37,796 nucleotides of DNA from a virus (lineage: Duplodnaviria; Heunggongvirae; Uroviricota; Caudoviricetes). Made by a program: the position numbers and the translations under genes. Below the pieces are notes generated by a model that did not search any database, had not been told where the DNA came from, and worked only from the letters and a program-made list of their open reading frames with translations. How positions within the stretch are numbered: position 1 is the stretch's first letter; each line of letters starts with the position of its first letter. Positions 2,734 through 37,796 of the stretch are shown here, piece by piece. The DNA lies in the IMG/VR virus record IMGVR_UViG_2897375277_000008, positions 1 through 37,796 of that record. One strand, written 5' to 3'.

Positions 2734-3312
2734 ATGATGCCATTTGCTCGTTATTTCTGCATTTTCATAAACGTTGGTTTGGGAGAAGGCTCTGCATTAC
2801 CGGTTGGGGTGCCTGTTCCGTGGCCTTCAGCCACTCCGCCAACAGGCTGGCTGAAATGCAATGGTGCGGCTTTTTCTGCTGAAGAATACCCGGAACTGGC
2901 AAAGGCTTACCCGACCAATAAATTGCCTGATTTACGCGGTGAATTTATTCGTGGCTGGGATGATGGACGTGGAGTGGATGCGGGGCGAGCCTTGCTAAGT
3001 CTTCAGAATGACTCTTTTGAAGCTCACAGGCATGAGTCCTTTTTTTACGCGGGTATTTCACGCAATGAAACACCATTAAAAAATCTTCCAAGTTCAGACG
3101 AGATGCTGACTTTAAGTTCCACAACTAATGCCTTGTCCCCGGACAGTATTGATGCCACCAATTCGTTAATTGGTAATGATGATTACAACTGTCTGATTGA
3201 AGGAAATAAAAATAACAAACGAACGGCAACGGGGTTGAGTACCAGTATTGTCGGTGCAGCAGAGACACGCCCACGTAATATTTCATTTAATTACATTGTG
3301 AGGGCTGCATGA
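2734..3312 (+). CDS. Alternative tail-fibre C-terminal cassette (silent in this orientation; no own start)
   Basis: ORF contains PVPWPSATPPTGWLKCNGAAFSAEEYPELAKAYPTNKLPDLRGEFIRGWDDGRG, the classic phage tail-fibre C-terminal motif; real coding starts at the crossover site around 2776. Confidence 0.7.
   Translation: MMPFARYFCIFINVGLGEGSALPVGVPVPWPSATPPTGWLKCNGAAFSAEEYPELAKAYPTNKLPDLRGEFIRGWDDGRGVDAGRALLSLQNDSFEAHRHESFFYAGISRNETPLKNLPSSDEMLTLSSTTNALSPDSIDATNSLIGNDDYNCLIEGNKNNKRTATGLSTSIVGAAETRPRNISFNYIVRAA
2762..2787 (+). other. Inversion crossover site (gix/pix-like), left
   Basis: 26-bp site ttttcataaacgTTggtttgggagaa; right half-site and central TT identical to the reverse complement of the site at 4598..4623. 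Confidence 0.7.
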
Positions 3313-3914
3313 TGTATAACGCCATCTTAAATAATAAATTTATTGCCACAAAGGCAGGAGAGATTACCGTTTATAACTATGACAGTGAGACACGGGAGTA
3401 TATTTCTGCATCAACTGAATATCTTGCTGTGGGTGTCGGTATCCCTGCATATTCCTGTTTAGATGCTCCTGGCACACATAAGGTTGGTTATGCAATCTGC
3501 CGTTCGGCAGATTTAAACTCATGGGAATATGTGCCAGACCATCGCGGTGAAGTTGTCTATAACACCGAAACGGGAGAATCAAAAGAAATCACAGCTCCGG
3601 GTGATTACCCTGAAAATACAACCACTATCGTCCCGTTAACGCCATACGATAAATGGGATGGTGAGAAATGGGTGACAGATACTGAGGCACAGCATAGTGC
3701 CGCAGTAGACGCGGCAGAAGCACAGCGCCAGTCGCTGATTGATGCTGCAATGGCTTCCATCAGTCTGATTCAACTGAAATTACAGGCCGGGCGGAAGCTG
3801 ACGCAGGCAGAAACAACCCGACTTAACGCCGTGCTGGATTACATTGACGCGGTGACGGTAACAGATACCAGCACCACGCCGGATGTCATCTGGCCTGAAC
3901 TGCCGGAGGCGTAG
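3309..3914 (+). CDS. Tail fibre assembly protein (alternative cassette)
   Basis: 201-aa ORF directly after the alternative fibre cassette; C-terminus ...[12 protein letters not shown] is Tfa-like. Confidence 0.7.
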
Positions 3915-32405: not shown

Positions 32406-33080
32406 ATGAAAACAATCCATGACATCCGGCGGTCTAACGCCAGAAAACTGAGAGATGGTGTTGGCGGGAATTCTTCCTTTGCCACTATGATTGATCGCGA
32501 GCCAACCCAGACCAGCAGGTTTATGGGAGATGGTGCTACTAAAAATATCGGTGACAGCATGGCACGACACATCGAAAAATGTTTCGACCTGCCTGTCGGA
32601 TGGCTCGATCAAGAACACCAGACAACGAACATCACAAAAAAACCTGATGTTTCAATCACTAATAAACAAATCACATTAGTCCCTGTCATATCATGGGTAC
32701 AGGCCGGAGCATGGAAAGAAGTTGGATATTCTGAGGTTGATTTGAGCACAGCAGAAACGTATCCCTGCCCTGTACCCTGTGGGGAAATGACTTATATCTT
32801 GCGGGTGATAGGTGATTCAATGATTGATGAGTACCGCCCGGGAGACATGATTTTTGTCGATCCTGAAGTACCTGCCTGCCACGGTGACGACGTTATTGCA
32901 TTGATGCACGATACAGGTGAAACCACCTTCAAAAGGTTGATAGAAGATGGGACACAGCATTATCTCAAAGCGTTAAACCCAAACTGGCCTGAGCCTTACA
33001 TTAAGATCAACGGTAATTGCTCTATAATTGGAACTGTGATTTTCTCAGGAAAACCAAGAAGATACAAAATCAAAGCCTAA
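32406..33080 (+). CDS. cI: CI-type repressor (HTH plus S24 LexA-like peptidase domain)
   Basis: 224-aa ORF divergent from cro; C-terminal half ...LRVIGDSMIDEYRPGDMIFVDPE...GDDVIALMHDTGETTFKRL... is S24 autopeptidase-like. Confidence 0.85.
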   Translation: MKTIHDIRRSNARKLRDGVGGNSSFATMIDREPTQTSRFMGDGATKNIGDSMARHIEKCFDLPVGWLDQEHQTTNITKKPDVSITNKQITLVPVISWVQAGAWKEVGYSEVDLSTAETYPCPVPCGEMTYILRVIGDSMIDEYRPGDMIFVDPEVPACHGDDVIALMHDTGETTFKRLIEDGTQHYLKALNPNWPEPYIKINGNCSIIGTVIFSGKPRRYKIKA

Positions 33081-33092
33081 TCAATGTTTATG

Positions 33093-33115
33093 AACCTGCT
33101 TCGGCAGGTTTTTTT
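33093..33115 (+). terminator. Intrinsic terminator after cI
   Basis: Stem aacctgc/gcaggtt, loop ttcg, then TTTTT. Confidence 0.7.
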
Positions 33116-33119
33116 ATAC

Positions 33120-33153
33120 TTGACAATGTACCCTTAAGATACATAATGTACCC
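33120..33153 (+). promoter_or_regulatory. Candidate P_L-equivalent promoter with operator motif
   Basis: TTGACA (33120..33125), N17, ATAATG; overlapped by ATGTACCCTTAAGATACAT (33126..33144), same 19-bp pattern as in O_R, plus a second ATGTACCC at 33146..33153. Confidence 0.5.
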
Positions 33154-33314
33154 AAGAGAAACAACAAACAGGCAGGACGCCCACGAAGTAGCCGCCTGGG
33201 GCATATGAAGTCCAGGATGATTCGTTAGCAACAAAAAAGCGCCCTACAGGACGCTTAGCTCTTTAACAATCTGGTCCCCATCAACAAGTAACTGATAACT
33301 TGAGGAGGTGTGAA

Positions 33315-33521
33315 ATGCACAAAACAGAACCAAAAATCGTCGCGCCCGGATACACAAATGAGGAAATTTACGAGTGGATGGCAAAGAAGCTGGCAGCTAT
33401 AAACCAGCTTCGTGAAGTGCTGTCTTATCGACAGGAAACAATAGACTCCTTAAAAAAACTGGATCAGGAAATCACGGTTTTATCACAGGATGTTACTTTA
33501 GATATTGTGCAGACAAATTAG
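33315..33521 (+). CDS. Hypothetical 68-aa protein (first gene after P_L-like promoter)
   Basis: Start at ATG 33315 with strong GAGGAGG Shine-Dalgarno (track ORF starts 33300); predicted helical, not Arg-rich. Confidence 0.5.
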   Translation: MHKTEPKIVAPGYTNEEIYEWMAKKLAAINQLREVLSYRQETIDSLKKLDQEITVLSQDVTLDIVQTN

Positions 33522-33927
33522 GATCCCATTCATTTTCGTCAAAATCATCAAAGTGATGAATTTGTGATCTCCAGTCTCGATAATCTAAAAATTTCTGGGC
33601 GGTTACGCTTATTTTATCAAGCGTGAGTTCATCCTGAATTGAAAGAAGAAGTTCATCAAATTTCATCTCATTAATCTGTTTTGGCATCCAGTGATGCTTC
33701 ATCAGAATAAGGTGAACCAGAGCTTTTTTCCCATTCAACTGATTATAGGGAGTGCCGAATTTCTTCCGGTGCTCATGTAAGACAAGGTCCAGAAGAGTAA
33801 GTAATGTTGCCCTTGATTCAACTTTGCTTATTTCGACTGATGACACTACCCCACTGATTTCAATGCCCCGATACTTTCCAACATTTTCACAGTGGGATTT
33901 GTACAGCGTATAGATATTACCGGACAT
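33493..33927 (-). CDS. Hypothetical 144-aa protein in the immunity region
   Basis: ORF convergent with and overlapping the 68-aa gene by 29 bp; AT-rich; direct repeats in its upstream region. Confidence 0.5.
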   Translation of the reverse strand: MSGNIYTLYKSHCENVGKYRGIEISGVVSSVEISKVESRATLLTLLDLVLHEHRKKFGTPYNQLNGKKALVHLILMKHHWMPKQINEMKFDELLLSIQDELTLDKISVTAQKFLDYRDWRSQIHHFDDFDENEWDPNLSAQYLK

Positions 33928-33942
33928 TTCTTTTCCTTTTGC

Positions 33943-33993
33943 GTTGTTGGGGATAACCAGATTAACCGAATCCTTGTTGTTGGGGAATAACCA
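33943..33993 (-). repeat. Direct repeats upstream of the 144-aa gene
   Basis: gttgttggggataaccag (33943..33960) and gttgttggggaataaccag (33975..33993), 32 bp apart, 16 to 66 bp upstream of the start codon. Confidence 0.55.
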
Positions 33994-34210
33994 GGTCCAC
34001 CTCGCCTGATGTGGCTAAAAGCAGGCACATAACAGCTAAGTATTTTCAACCAGAGAGAATCCTTAGCGTTGTGGTGAATGCGGCTCAGCGCACGCGGGTT
34101 AAGGTTGAGGCTGACAGTCGACCTTCTGTGGATACCCACCCGTCTGGTGTGCAACCTTCGCTAGGCACCGGGAAGCACCCGGCACCACAACTTTATGCTG
34201 TGTGTAGTCT

Positions 34211-34259
34211 TGACGGTACCAGTTTGTACCCTTGCTTCCGGCTGGTACCGTCCTTTTTA
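34211..34259 (+). terminator. Intrinsic terminator-like hairpin
   Basis: 11-bp perfect stem gacggtaccag/ctggtaccgtc with 19-nt loop, then cttttt. Confidence 0.5.
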
Positions 34260-34347
34260 CAAAACAGAGAAGAGCATCACCGGACGACGGGCTCATAACC
34301 CAATCCATCCGGGCGGCAGTCATCGCAGGTGTTCTTCTCTGTTTTGT
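34259..34347 (+). repeat. Long inverted repeat (17 of 18 bp arms, 53-bp spacer) upstream of xis
   Basis: acaaaacagagaagagca (34259..34276) pairs with tgttcttctctgttttgt (34330..34347). Confidence 0.6.
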
Positions 34348-34420
34348 GGAGAAACTAACCGACCTTGCAGGGTCGATATGCAGAGACTGAACAGTTATTG
34401 AAGTAATAAGGTGATCGCAT

Positions 34421-34666
34421 ATGCTTCAAATGTTAACTCTTGAAGAATGGGCTTCTGAAAAATACAGAAGTAATCCTCCAAGCGTTTCCACGTTGCGTCG
34501 TTATGCTAAGCAGAATTTGTTTTGTCCACCGGCAATGAAACAAGGTCGGTTATGGCGAGTGCGTGAGGACGCCGAGTTAGTTGGAGAGCTGGTAACACCA
34601 GTAATTAAGAAAAATGACTCATTACTTTTGCAACGGATTTTGAGTGATGGCAGCCAGACCGCGTAA
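34421..34666 (+). CDS. xis: Excisionase-like protein
   Basis: 81-aa ORF immediately upstream of and overlapping the integrase gene. Confidence 0.6.
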   Translation: MLQMLTLEEWASEKYRSNPPSVSTLRRYAKQNLFCPPAMKQGRLWRVREDAELVGELVTPVIKKNDSLLLQRILSDGSQTA

Positions 34667-35774
34667 GAATAATGTTTCAGTCCCTAACTTATATCCGCTT
34701 TATAGCCGAAAGGTAAATAAAGTCTATTGGCGGTATAAGCATCCAATAACAGGGAAATTCCATGCTTTGGGAACAAACGAAGCTGAAGCTATCGCTATTG
34801 CCACTGAAGCCAATACGCGCCTGGCTGAACAAAGAACCCGGCAGATTCTGGCCATCAGTGACAGGATCGCAACCAGCAAAGGGAAAGCAATCACAACGTC
34901 AACTTGGTTAGATCGCTATCAAGCGATCCAGAATGACAGGCTGCAAAGTGGTGATATAAAGCTCAACACCTACAAGCAGAAAGCCAAACCTGTCTCCTTA
35001 CTTAGAGAACGGGCAGGATTGAAGCTAATTTCAGCTGTTGATGTCCGGGATATTGCACAATTACTTGATGAGTATATTGCCGCTGGGCAACCGAGAATGG
35101 CACAAGTAGTTCGCTCCGTCCTGATTGATGTTTTCAAAGAGGCGCAGCACTACGGAGAAGTACCTCCTGGCTATAACCCTGCATTAGCTACTAAACAGCC
35201 AAGAAGAAAAATTACCCGACAACGGCTGAGCCTCGAAGAATGGAAAAAAATATTCGATATCGCAGATGCCAGCCATCGTTACATGGGAAATGCCATGCTG
35301 CTAGCCTTGGTTACTGGTCAGCGGTTAGGTGATATTTCACGTATGAAATTTAGCGATATTTGGGATGATCATCTGCATGTCATTCAGGAAAAAACCGGGA
35401 GCAAAATCGCCATCCCGCTTTCCCTGCGCCTCAATGCGATTAACTGGAGTTTGCGCGATGTAGTAGCCCGTTGCCGTGACTATGCTGTCAGCCCATACCT
35501 TGTACATTTTTTTCGTACTACTTCACAGGCTGAACGCGGCGCACAGGTTAAAGCCAATACCTTGACTATGAATTTCAGTAAAGCAAGAGATTTAGCAGGA
35601 ATTGACTGGGGTGAAGGTTCTCCCGCAACATTTCATGAACAAAGGTCTTTATCAGAACGTTTGTATAAAGAACAGGGTTTAAATACACAAAAATTACTTG
35701 GTCATAAAACACAACAACAAACCGATCGTTATCATGACGATCGAGGCAAGGGATGGAGCAAAGTAGCGTTGTGA
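34644..35774 (+). CDS. int: Tyrosine integrase, lambda Int family
   Basis: 376-aa ORF; parallels lambda Int as I recall it (…VTGQRLGDISRMKFSDI…, …TFHEQRSLSERLYKEQ…, …LLGHKTQQQTDRYHDDRG…, with the C-terminal catalytic Tyr). Confidence 0.9.
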   Translation: MMAARPRKNNVSVPNLYPLYSRKVNKVYWRYKHPITGKFHALGTNEAEAIAIATEANTRLAEQRTRQILAISDRIATSKGKAITTSTWLDRYQAIQNDRLQSGDIKLNTYKQKAKPVSLLRERAGLKLISAVDVRDIAQLLDEYIAAGQPRMAQVVRSVLIDVFKEAQHYGEVPPGYNPALATKQPRRKITRQRLSLEEWKKIFDIADASHRYMGNAMLLALVTGQRLGDISRMKFSDIWDDHLHVIQEKTGSKIAIPLSLRLNAINWSLRDVVARCRDYAVSPYLVHFFRTTSQAERGAQVKANTLTMNFSKARDLAGIDWGEGSPATFHEQRSLSERLYKEQGLNTQKLLGHKTQQQTDRYHDDRGKGWSKVAL

Positions 35775-35924: not shown

Positions 35925-37796
35925 TTAAACCACGATTCCTAAATGGCATGGTTGCTCACCTTCAAGAGAGGCTCTCATTAAGGTCAGGAATTGGGATAAA
36001 TTATTTCTAAAATCAGAACCACTATCTTCCGCCATTCCTGGAGCTAACGAACTTACTAATAAAGCAGGTGTGATAGGTCTTGTTCCGTAAATACTATATT
36101 TCTCATGATGGAAATGACGAGTCTCGCAAGATTCACTTGGATTTACAATCATCAGCCCAGAAGACAAACTTTTTCCAGTATTTTTTTCATGTATACCATG
36201 AAGGTATTTCATAGTGAGTTCGGGGAGGTAATGTGTAAACGCTTTTTTACTGGTAGTATACTTTGCATCTAGGATTAATTGCCTTTGTTCACCCGTAGGC
36301 GTTGAAATGCAAACTATCATGTCTGGTGATCGATTAGCATTAGGACCTTGCTGCCCTCTAGGCTTCAATTTACCTTTCACGGTGTCTAGAGTCCACCCTT
36401 CGGAGTTAATTAGGGAAGCCCCAAAAGAGCTTGCATGATCATGAGTCCAAATTTTCATCTCATAGATAAGCTGTACAGTAAAACCTCCCCAGTCATACTC
36501 AAAATTATTCCGTTCTATTACAGGGCCATTCACTAGCTCAAACTTCATGCCCAATAACCGTACGTTGTCAAAGTGATACTTAATTAAAAATAATAGGTAG
36601 TATTCAAAAAGTTTTGGGATACTTTGTATCGAAAATAGCTCTTCCTGTACGCTCCAATCAGGTGCGCCGAATCTATGCCAAGCAATTATTTTATGAAAAA
36701 CCTTCTGATAATGAAGGTTGTATCTAGCTTTTCTTGTGAATTGCGGAGTGCCAATGATAATATTAGTTACAGGAACCCGCTCATCAAAAGTTCGTTTCAA
36801 ACGCTGTAGATTAATAATCAATTCTTTACATCGTGAAACTTTATTTTTATTTACAACCTTTGCAAACTTACTTAGCTGTGCAAAAAATGAAATATACCCG
36901 GATATGCTCGACTGTTCACGAATTCTGGAAGAAGGATACTCTTCAAGCCGACTCAAGATCTCCGATGCAGCACGCATAAGGGATACTATAAAGCCATGGA
37001 CAACTTGATTTTCATAAATATTCAAATCCTCTTTTAGATGATTTTCTAATATTCGTTCCGATGAATAATATGTGCCATCTAGTTCCAATATTGCGCGGGT
37101 CTGATCATTAACTGGATAAAGGTTGTCAGAGTTTTCTGAAATCCAAGCTAAAGTGGTGTCATCGATAACAGAGTTTTCAGATACTACGACAACTTTAGTC
37201 ACTGGTGTAAGTTTTGCGATTGGCCTGGAATAGATATTTGGAATCTCGGTCATTAACAATAAAACATTTCGTTCGAGTTGTTCAATCAAAAAGCTAACCG
37301 ATCTTTCTCCTTCTTTGAATCCTGCATTTATACGAGTTACTCTAAAAAATGCTGCTAGAGCATCATTATCATGACACGCTAAGAAATCGAGCATTTTTTC
37401 TGCCCGTTCAGCATTCAATTTTTTGGCAAATACTTCAACCGGAGAATATTGTTCAATAATAACTCTTTCGCCAACTCCATCGATTTTCGTTACTATCGAT
37501 AGCTCTGCCATACCATAATAGTTATGAAAAAAGCATTCGTATGTTGATCGATATATAGATTTTGGTTTCCATTCGTAAATCCATAGGCCATCGTATTCTT
37601 TGCTAGAAGTTATTCCTATTTCATTTTCATGAAGACATAAAAAAACATCATCCAACGGAACAGATGCTTCCAGCCTAAACTCTAGAGCTTCGTCTTCCAG
37701 AAAATAAATCTGATTAGAGGACTGAAGACCAAAGGGAGTCAACCCTATCTCTAGACCACTTCTCCTGCCGTTTATTATCTTCGCAGTAAACCTCAT
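35925..37796 (-). CDS. McrC-like PD-(D/E)xK nuclease family protein (start codon at window edge)
   Basis: 623-aa AT-rich ORF; C-terminal ...SPDMIVCISTPTGEQRQLILDAKYT... parallels the McrC catalytic region (…DITIRSSEKILIVDAKYY…) as I recall it. Confidence 0.6.
   Translation of the reverse strand: MRFTAKIINGRRSGLEIGLTPFGLQSSNQIYFLEDEALEFRLEASVPLDDVFLCLHENEIGITSSKEYDGLWIYEWKPKSIYRSTYECFFHNYYGMAELSIVTKIDGVGERVIIEQYSPVEVFAKKLNAERAEKMLDFLACHDNDALAAFFRVTRINAGFKEGERSVSFLIEQLERNVLLLMTEIPNIYSRPIAKLTPVTKVVVVSENSVIDDTTLAWISENSDNLYPVNDQTRAILELDGTYYSSERILENHLKEDLNIYENQVVHGFIVSLMRAASEILSRLEEYPSSRIREQSSISGYISFFAQLSKFAKVVNKNKVSRCKELIINLQRLKRTFDERVPVTNIIIGTPQFTRKARYNLHYQKVFHKIIAWHRFGAPDWSVQEELFSIQSIPKLFEYYLLFLIKYHFDNVRLLGMKFELVNGPVIERNNFEYDWGGFTVQLIYEMKIWTHDHASSFGASLINSEGWTLDTVKGKLKPRGQQGPNANRSPDMIVCISTPTGEQRQLILDAKYTTSKKAFTHYLPELTMKYLHGIHEKNTGKSLSSGLMIVNPSESCETRHFHHEKYSIYGTRPITPALLVSSLAPGMAEDSGSDFRNNLSQFLTLMRASLEGEQPCHLGIVV

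Follow-up and report, generated by a model that had tools for sequence, protein, structure and literature searches.

Genes that lie beside cI and PL and are presumed to be expressed in the lysogen are exemplified by rexAB of phage lambda and by sieB and esc of P22 and lambda, the latter two embodying the logic of a self-protection product. Another described arrangement is that of transcription units placed face to face, as in lambda cII and OOP RNA, P22 ant and sar, and the pR and pL units of coliphage 186, where the overlap results in mutually exclusive expression. Here we report on a locus that invites comparison with both: a convergent, overlapping pair of small genes next to cI in a 37,796-nucleotide stretch of viral DNA (IMG/VR record IMGVR_UViG_2897375277_000008, positions 1 to 37,796; hereafter the window), which is a temperate prophage of the SfIV/SfV/e14-like type from Escherichia coli. 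Our reading, to which we give a probability of roughly one half, is that the region is a mobile two-gene accessory cassette, or moron, inserted between PL and the early-left backbone, that its two genes are expressed in a mutually exclusive fashion in the lysogenic and lytic states, and that the small protein is antagonistic. We describe the two gene families and the conservation of their convergent layout, the control signals that surround them and the exchangeable slot in which they reside, and weigh the competing explanations.

As a first-pass annotation of this DNA had described, a plus-strand gene encoding 68 amino acids (aa; 33315-33521) converges on a minus-strand gene encoding 144 aa (33493-33927); both start with ATG, and the overlap was found to be exactly 29 bp (33493-33521). 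The pair is embedded in a plus-strand order of cI/ymfK, the cI terminator, a PL-like promoter, the two genes themselves, a conserved GC-rich non-coding stretch, xis and int, such that the smaller gene is co-directional with PL and the larger is antisense to the PL operon. The AT-richness ascribed to the region is real but modest, the GC content being 35-36% at 33400-33700 compared to 42-54% in the flanks and 54% immediately to the right of the pair. Over 33100-34420 the sequence shares 99.8% identity with E. coli H22 and 98% with Shigella phage SfIV.

Neither protein had been assigned to a family, which holds true for Pfam but not for NCBIfam and PHROGs. The 144-aa protein is a member of the ECs1072 family; it matches NCBIfam NF033230 with 157.8 bits (cutoff 70; E = 1.7e-46; residues 4-144 on positions 2-142) and phrog_5286 over its full length (E = 1.5e-90; residues 1-144 of 144). 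A word-indexed search recovered close relatives only, whereas an exhaustive search with hidden Markov models (HMMs) yielded 76 cluster representatives, every one of them a single-domain protein of 145-155 aa. The residues conserved across the family read L(E/D)xxLxxHR...LxGxxALxH...KxxW...EW(D)P, in which we know of no nameable motif. The structure is predicted with confidence as compact and all-alpha; a sequence-profile search of the PDB, fold comparison and a Foldseek search of BFVD returned no solved or similar fold, no membrane or nuclease signature is predicted, and Pfam and PADLOC applied to 47 family members gave no meaningful matches. Homology to a known early-left recombination or regulatory gene, which would have spoken against the first-pass interpretation, did not emerge from the profile and structure searches. 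For these ‘hypothetical’ families, the libraries and papers searched record neither a function nor a structure, and neither a partnership nor an orientation rule, and the literature on ECs1072, Sb50, the ECOR13 prophages and convergent prophage genes offers nothing on function. In a Sakai array study, ECs1072 is one of the genes listed with changed expression (-2.13) during a growth transition in an uninduced culture (PMC2241611), which is weak evidence for our reading given that ECs1072 is a divergent member and the probe strand is uncertain.

The 68-aa protein is in turn a full-length member of phrog_1744 (E = 4.8e-34; residues 1-68 of 68); it has nothing above the Pfam cut-off and no PADLOC match, and its sequence is hydrophilic and helical. 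The corresponding partners in relatives that reside between Q and the holin gene (the Q site) are about 80-90 aa long and belong to phrog_3501; they align with the 68-aa protein, a truncated form, along ..EP....PG.T.E.L.EW. followed by a helical region, and a partner from Serratia bridges phrog_3501 and phrog_1744. The ratio of non-synonymous to synonymous substitution rates (dN/dS) in the small family has a median of 0.19 outside the overlap and is about 1 inside it, a pattern indicative of purifying selection on the former part and of double constraint on the latter. On sequence grounds, both genes of the pair are real.

A homologous small open reading frame (ORF) converges on the large gene in all 80 IMG/VR loci that were compared (about 12 clusters at 85% identity), and the two coding regions usually overlap by 71-113 nt. 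The E. albertii copy, with 72% identity, occupies the same site and has the same convergent partner. In a Serratia prophage (35% identity), in Salmonella phage ST64B and in Klebsiella phages the large gene is found between Q and the holin gene, where it converges on and overlaps an ORF of 80-90 aa; in ST64B it is the unannotated strand opposite Sb50. The module is thus PL-proximal in the window and in SfIV, and lies at the Q-holin site in ST64B, Klebsiella, Serratia and IMG/VR loci, while the namesake of the family in Sakai prophage Sp4 (now ECs_5703) is antisense between cII and O, the gap in which lambda carries oop, and converges with a plus-strand ORF, phrog_8304. At every representative locus the neighbouring lytic genes share the strand of the small gene and only the large gene is antisense. 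That the pair stays convergent and keeps a fixed orientation relative to the lytic genes is what the reciprocal regulation between lysogenic and lytic states, proposed in the first-pass annotation, predicts. Of 5426 complete E. coli genomes, 424 (about 8%, ST131 strains included) contain some match to the cassette, and 410 of these 424 contain both genes; the E. coli version occurs on at least 1000 contigs, as does the Klebsiella version. These comparisons identify the pair as a conserved module whose juxtaposition is not due to chance.

The overlap itself has a fine structure. Four loci of the Q-site type (L012, L013, L014 and L035) contain the perfect palindrome TGGGATCCCA, which each of the two genes reads in frame, from its own strand, as Trp-Asp-Pro. 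Its counterpart in the window, TAGGATCCCA (33519..33528), is degenerate: the Trp codon of the small gene has become a TAG stop, while the large gene is altered only synonymously, and for this reason the partner is only 68 aa long and the overlap only 29 bp. The predicted intrinsic terminator of the large gene at the Q site, AGCCGCTC-CTCAA-GAGCGGCT and then a T-run, falls within the small gene about 35 nt past the stop codon (L014 3980-4008; L017 4477-4505; L013 3760-3788), where its antisense encodes the conserved E-K-A-A-L-E-E-R-L of the small protein; in the folding of these terminators the hairpin cores are data and the 5' GAAAAC prefix was supplied by hand. The window differs from the Q-site loci in that its terminator is located beyond the start of the small gene.

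The signals upstream of the pair are consistent with control by the phage repressor. The cI/ymfK repressor gene (Peptidase_S24 in Pfam; 32406-33080, plus strand) is followed by an intrinsic terminator of the cI (PRM) transcript (33092-33117, plus strand; GAACCTGCTTCGGCAGGTTT and then a T-run), which is annotated at the same place in SfV and is predicted to shield the cassette from lysogenic cI transcription. The PL-like promoter that the first-pass annotation placed ahead of the 68-aa gene was found at 33120-33147 (plus strand; TTGACA-16-CATAAT, consensus score 11/12), overlapped by two operator-like repeats AATGTACCC...ACA at 33125 and 33145 (region 33120..33163, plus strand). Operator half-sites TGTACC...GrTACA recur between cI and cro, and PL is therefore very probably under repressor control. 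The PL leader that follows (33160..33226, plus strand, delimited by blastn break-points) bounds the variable slot as its left backbone flank; its approximately 65 nt are 85-97% conserved even in the heteroimmune phages SfII, mEp460_4F5 and ST64B, which points to a cis-acting leader element. There is no visible N-like gene, and the fold of the leader is unexceptional (z = -0.1).

Just downstream of the leader lies the predicted intrinsic terminator of the 144-aa gene transcript (feature 33227..33256, minus strand, hairpin 33256-33237; AAGCGTCCTGTAGGGCGCTT and then TTTTGTTGCT). Its hairpin has a folding energy of -11.5 to -12.1 kcal/mol and is weaker in the E. albertii copy; phage PhiR29_1 retains the terminator despite a different cargo. 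From this position it follows that the 144-aa transcript would be antisense to the entire 68-aa gene and end before PL. Directly after the hairpin on the PL transcript we read a boxA-like element, AGCTCTTTAACAA (33255..33267, plus strand; CGCTCTTTAACAA in E. albertii), which we take to resemble the boxA of rrn operons and lambda. The PL transcript accordingly presents at 33237-33267 a hairpin and then AGCTCTTTAACAA, a boxB-then-boxA order reminiscent of the rrn antiterminators, in which the hairpin doubles as the minus-strand terminator.

Taken together with the repeats discussed below, this layout suggests how the two genes could be used. The 144-aa gene would be an autonomous unit that starts in the repeat-bearing spacer and is read against the lytic operon; being autonomous, and ending at its terminator short of PL, it would be expressible while the repressor shuts PL. 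The 68-aa gene has a strong ribosome-binding site (GAGGAGG) and would, for want of a promoter of its own, be made only when PL fires. As the two units converge, transcription from PL is expected to collide with the large gene and to silence it by antisense; in the lysogen the large-gene transcript would span the whole small gene, making expression mutually exclusive. The small protein may target the large protein or its pathway, probably counteracting it, and could thereby abolish an activity of the lysogen that does harm, or is of no use, after the switch to lytic growth. Reciprocal lysogenic and lytic expression is well supported by the architecture; the timing of expression, the interference, the antagonism between the proteins and an activity of the large protein are what we infer from it. 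The 144-aa gene presumably has its own promoter, and relatives at the Q site contain a conserved TGATATTGT, resembling an extended minus-10 element, about 40 nt upstream of the large-gene start. An extension of the 144-aa ORF upstream through the repeats was considered and discarded as non-coding; the reading frame is maintained in E. albertii (L009) and PhiR29_1 (L004) but not in the window.

In comparison to the antisense control pairs of other phages, both strands here encode conserved proteins, and the overlap dual-codes the Trp-Asp-Pro palindrome and, in relatives, also a terminator. The locus is like rexAB and sieB with esc in its position beside cI and PL and in its presumed lysogen expression, and its partner gene would follow the self-protection logic of sieB and esc. 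In contrast to rexAB, which is co-transcribed with cI, the 144-aa gene is antisense to PL and has its own predicted terminator, and unlike esc, its partner is a separate convergent gene rather than the product of an internal start. With morons the cassette has in common a presence/absence polymorphism in otherwise collinear phages, lower GC content, a predicted terminator and an opposite orientation; it departs from them as a two-gene unit of which one gene is left under the lytic promoter of the phage, flanked by an inverted repeat motif and situated beside an STnc100-like small RNA (sRNA). A terminator of its own is predicted for the large gene not only in the window (33256-33237, minus strand) but also in relatives, where conserved terminators follow it.

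The slot in which the pair resides is variable. SfV, SfII, mEp460_4F5 and ST64B have in common with the window only 33160-33226 and 33997-34380 (blastn), and between these flanks they carry different small genes or nothing annotated. PhiR29_1 shares more, namely 33000-33274 and 33943-34380 (blastn), and contains the minus-strand terminator, the boxA-like element, the inverted copy of a repeat motif and both direct repeats; the cargo between its motif copies is another minus-strand gene, phrog_1244, encoding a coiled coil and a zinc ribbon. Constant flanks with differing inserts in SfV, SfII, mEp460_4F5, PhiR29_1 and ST64B amount to presence and absence at a fixed site, and by this comparison the conserved flanks enclose a cassette that is exchangeable cargo. 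The alternative cargos of the slot showed no match to known defence models in PADLOC and no meaningful Pfam match. The first-pass annotation had located the pair where lambdoid phages keep exclusion genes; the position stands, the pair occupying a variable accessory slot that separates cI/PL from the early-left genes in SfV/SfIV/e14-like phages, while the link to exclusion genes is unsupported.

Two direct repeats of 18 and 19 bp upstream of the 144-aa gene, which the first-pass annotation had pointed out, are indeed present: GTTGTTGGGGATAACCAG (33943-33960) and GTTGTTGGGGAATAACCAG (33976-33994), both on the plus strand and of the form GTTGTTGGGGA(A)TAACCAG, 33 bp apart from start to start with 15 bp between the copies. 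The two matches in the window compare to none in 100 shuffles, and the repeats are kept in E. albertii and in PhiR29_1. They sit at the right edge of the exchangeable cargo, within the divergent spacer that separates the 144-aa gene from the sRNA-like gene. A degenerate third copy in inverted orientation (33268-33288, minus strand), detected among inverted-repeat pairs, marks the left edge of the cargo just upstream of the 68-aa gene; the inverted copy of PhiR29_1, CTGTTGTGGATATCCAG, is closer to the motif. The cargo is thus surrounded by one inverted and two direct copies of TCTGG(T/A)TATCC(C/A)CA(A/G)CAA (in PhiR29_1 at L004 3172-3188 and 3728-3790), and the break-points of homology between the window and PhiR29_1 fall within motif copies, the left one at 33274/33275. 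Another locus, L008, has a single related copy, TCTGGATATCCACAGCAA (L008 3967-3983), upstream of a 56%-identical homologue of the large gene in an unrelated phage context, and the motif core in PhiR29_1 and L008 is the perfect palindrome TGGATATCCA. Because PhiR29_1 keeps the repeats around a different cargo, they are part of a reusable socket and not of this gene pair. The region had earlier been described as a repeat-bearing promoter; the repeats are there, but they are specific to the slot and not to the pair, and no sigma-70 consensus promoter accompanies them. The motif could be a protein-binding or recombination site. A likeness of the repeats to DnaA boxes (TTATCCCCA compared to TTATCCACA) gave insignificant scores, as did matches to the fold of DnaA domain IV, and is kept as a lead only; for the minus-strand RNA, neither the minimum free energy nor the centroid fold shows long-range pairing between the 5' repeats and the inverted 3' copy.

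On the far side of the repeats lies an sRNA-like element resembling the STnc100/PasD family (34038-34261, plus strand), recognised at permissive thresholds by Rfam RF02076 with 44.3 bits against a gathering score of 47 (E = 5.3e-8; model positions 1-206 of 206) and equipped with its own terminator hairpin (34212-34252) and T-run; at the gathering threshold the entire window has no Rfam matches. The presumed promoter region is in effect a divergent spacer of about 110 bp that the 144-aa gene shares with this sRNA-like gene. The right backbone flank, a conserved non-coding block of 385 bp (33997-34380), contains the element; many phages have this block in common, and in them it lies upstream of yfdP-type genes and is in some records partly annotated as frameshifted or spurious coding sequence. 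STnc100 and its relative PasD are prophage sRNAs often found beside cargo, for example stx2 (PMC12370729; bioRxiv 10.64898/2026.05.13.724894). The element in the window aligns to the full model; it differs from these sRNAs in scoring just below the gathering score and in its location, within the PL operon ahead of a yfdP-type gene and not in the late region. Clear STnc100 copies (72-108 bits) stand divergently beside the large gene in the Q-site loci L014, L024 and L035; L024 has three in tandem (3149-3844, minus strand; 72-92 bits), directly upstream of and divergent from the ECs1072-family gene. Base pairing between the sRNA and the module was considered and rejected, the duplex energies being weaker than background. 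An 18-nt inverted repeat (34259-34276 and 34330-34347; 94% complementary, with a 53-nt loop) directly follows the sRNA-like terminator. The sRNA-like gene, along with the inverted repeat copy, the minus-strand terminator, the boxA-like element and the named families of both proteins, had been absent from the first-pass annotation.

A number of observations weigh against the moron reading. The coding overlap is far from constant, ranging from -52 to +113 nt among the loci. In Sp4 the ORF that converges on the large gene has no HMM match to the small family, and the N-terminus of phrog_8304 is only marginally like it (hhalign probability 34%, E = 4e-4). The 56%-identical homologue in L008 is without a detectable small partner, and a few loci have a truncated partner beside an intact large gene, so that a partner is not obligatory for carrying the large gene. 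A sigma-70 scan of the minus strand from 32900 to 34500 found no promoter for the 144-aa gene. The 144-aa protein has no Pfam and no PADLOC match, and searches of Pfam, PADLOC and the PDB revealed no homology of the pair to known defence, toxin or regulator proteins.

In the nearest competing explanation, the 144-aa protein would be expressed in the lysogen as a superinfection-exclusion or abortive-infection factor of the RexAB or SieB kind, and the small protein would be an induction-coupled antidote that allows the prophage to escape its own defence. The gene does occupy classical moron and exclusion slots (cI/PL, Q-lysis and cII-O), is antisense with its own predicted terminator, is widespread in E. 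coli and Klebsiella prophages and shares its slot with variable cargo. Yet neither the two proteins nor the alternative cargos match a PADLOC model, Pfam places the 144-aa protein in no Rex- or SieB-type family and has nothing above cut-off for the 68-aa one, and there is no solved fold relative and no predicted membrane or nuclease signature. The resemblance to rexAB and sieB drawn in the first-pass annotation found no sequence or fold link, nor a defence model in PADLOC, to sustain it; an exclusion function is at present unsupported, and we regard this explanation as conceivable but doubtful. We are similarly tentative about a more elaborate proposal, a self-disarming prophage immunity or lysogen effector, in which an orphan-fold protein restricted to the lysogen would be paired with an antagonist wired to PL, PR or PR' and the two genes would be locked together by the dual-coded palindrome and the EKAALEERL terminator. 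Somewhat less probable still is a role in phage development, with the large protein acting in the lysogen on induction, antitermination or the STnc100-like sRNA and the small protein reversing this early in lytic growth. Such a role would fit the divergent STnc100-family neighbours of the large gene in the window, L014, L024 (the three tandem copies) and L035, the boxA-like element alongside the cassette and the fact that the module is always found on main lytic transcripts, directly downstream of PL, PR or Q. However, STnc100-like elements also stand beside unrelated cargo such as stx2 (PMC12370729) and SfV orf33 and may merely mark slots, STnc100 reaches its gathering score in only 3 of about 12 Q-site clusters, and related phages that do without the module imply that it is dispensable for development.

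We consider it very improbable that the pair is an addiction module in which one product is toxic and the other, or its antisense RNA, neutralises it. Tight linkage, mobility and a convergent antisense layout reminiscent of type I logic would suit a toxin-antitoxin system, but there is no co-transcription and there are no recognisable toxin or antitoxin folds, as type II systems would have, and instead of the small hydrophobic peptide of type I systems both strands encode conserved proteins. Large genes remain intact where the partner is truncated or missing, a small gene behind a promoter that is repressed in lysogens would provide no constitutive antitoxin, and Pfam and PADLOC hold no toxin-antitoxin match. 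Equally remote is the explanation that the genes have no functional coupling, being two orphans packed together by genome compaction next to repeats that are recombination scars. It would account for the varying length of the overlap and for the coincidence of the repeats with recombination break-points; against it, the families remain convergent down to about 35% identity, in several genera and at several sites, with constant orientation relative to lytic transcription, and share a conserved palindrome and embedded terminator. Developmental or sRNA regulation, addiction and coincidence are on balance less likely than a moron embedded antisense in the lytic operon.

Beyond the cassette, the window carries xis (34421-34666, plus strand) and int (34644-35774, plus strand). 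Homology to SfIV and SfV stops at 34380, and xis and int of the e14 type come directly after; the early-left gene set yfdP-yfdT of the relatives is absent from this prophage. Just past int, 35925-37796 (minus strand) encodes a 623-aa DUF2357 protein resembling PD-(D/E)XK nucleases, for which no PADLOC or NCBIfam model matched; in strain H22 a hypothetical-protein gene of about 2.5 kb, cut at the end of the locus, follows the DUF2357 gene, and at this edge of the prophage the two have the look of a defence-type pair. In the E. albertii, SfV and ST64B relatives, the Ash/replication region contains a pair of isrK and C4 antisense RNA (L009 3464-3652; L002 876-1064; L007 740-928), which the window lacks at the Rfam gathering threshold.

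In kind, the locus is ordinary: accessory prophage cargo with antisense control. What is new lies in its particulars, a conserved pair with an orphan fold, an orientation rule that holds across sites and dual-coded elements in the overlap, in a module that is common in E. coli and Klebsiella and yet uncharacterised. The slot between PL and the STnc100-like element, and its equivalents downstream of PR and Q, swap cargo between conserved ends and are useful for finding accessory genes. The fixed orientation leads to the hypothesis that an activity restricted to the lysogen may be switched off at induction by antisense transcription together with a small protein. Should the large protein turn out to be an effector of defence or regulation, it would represent a new fold family, and if the self-disarming reading is true, the pair would constitute a new and widespread class of induction-coupled effector and anti-effector in the prophages of E. 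coli, Klebsiella and Salmonella.

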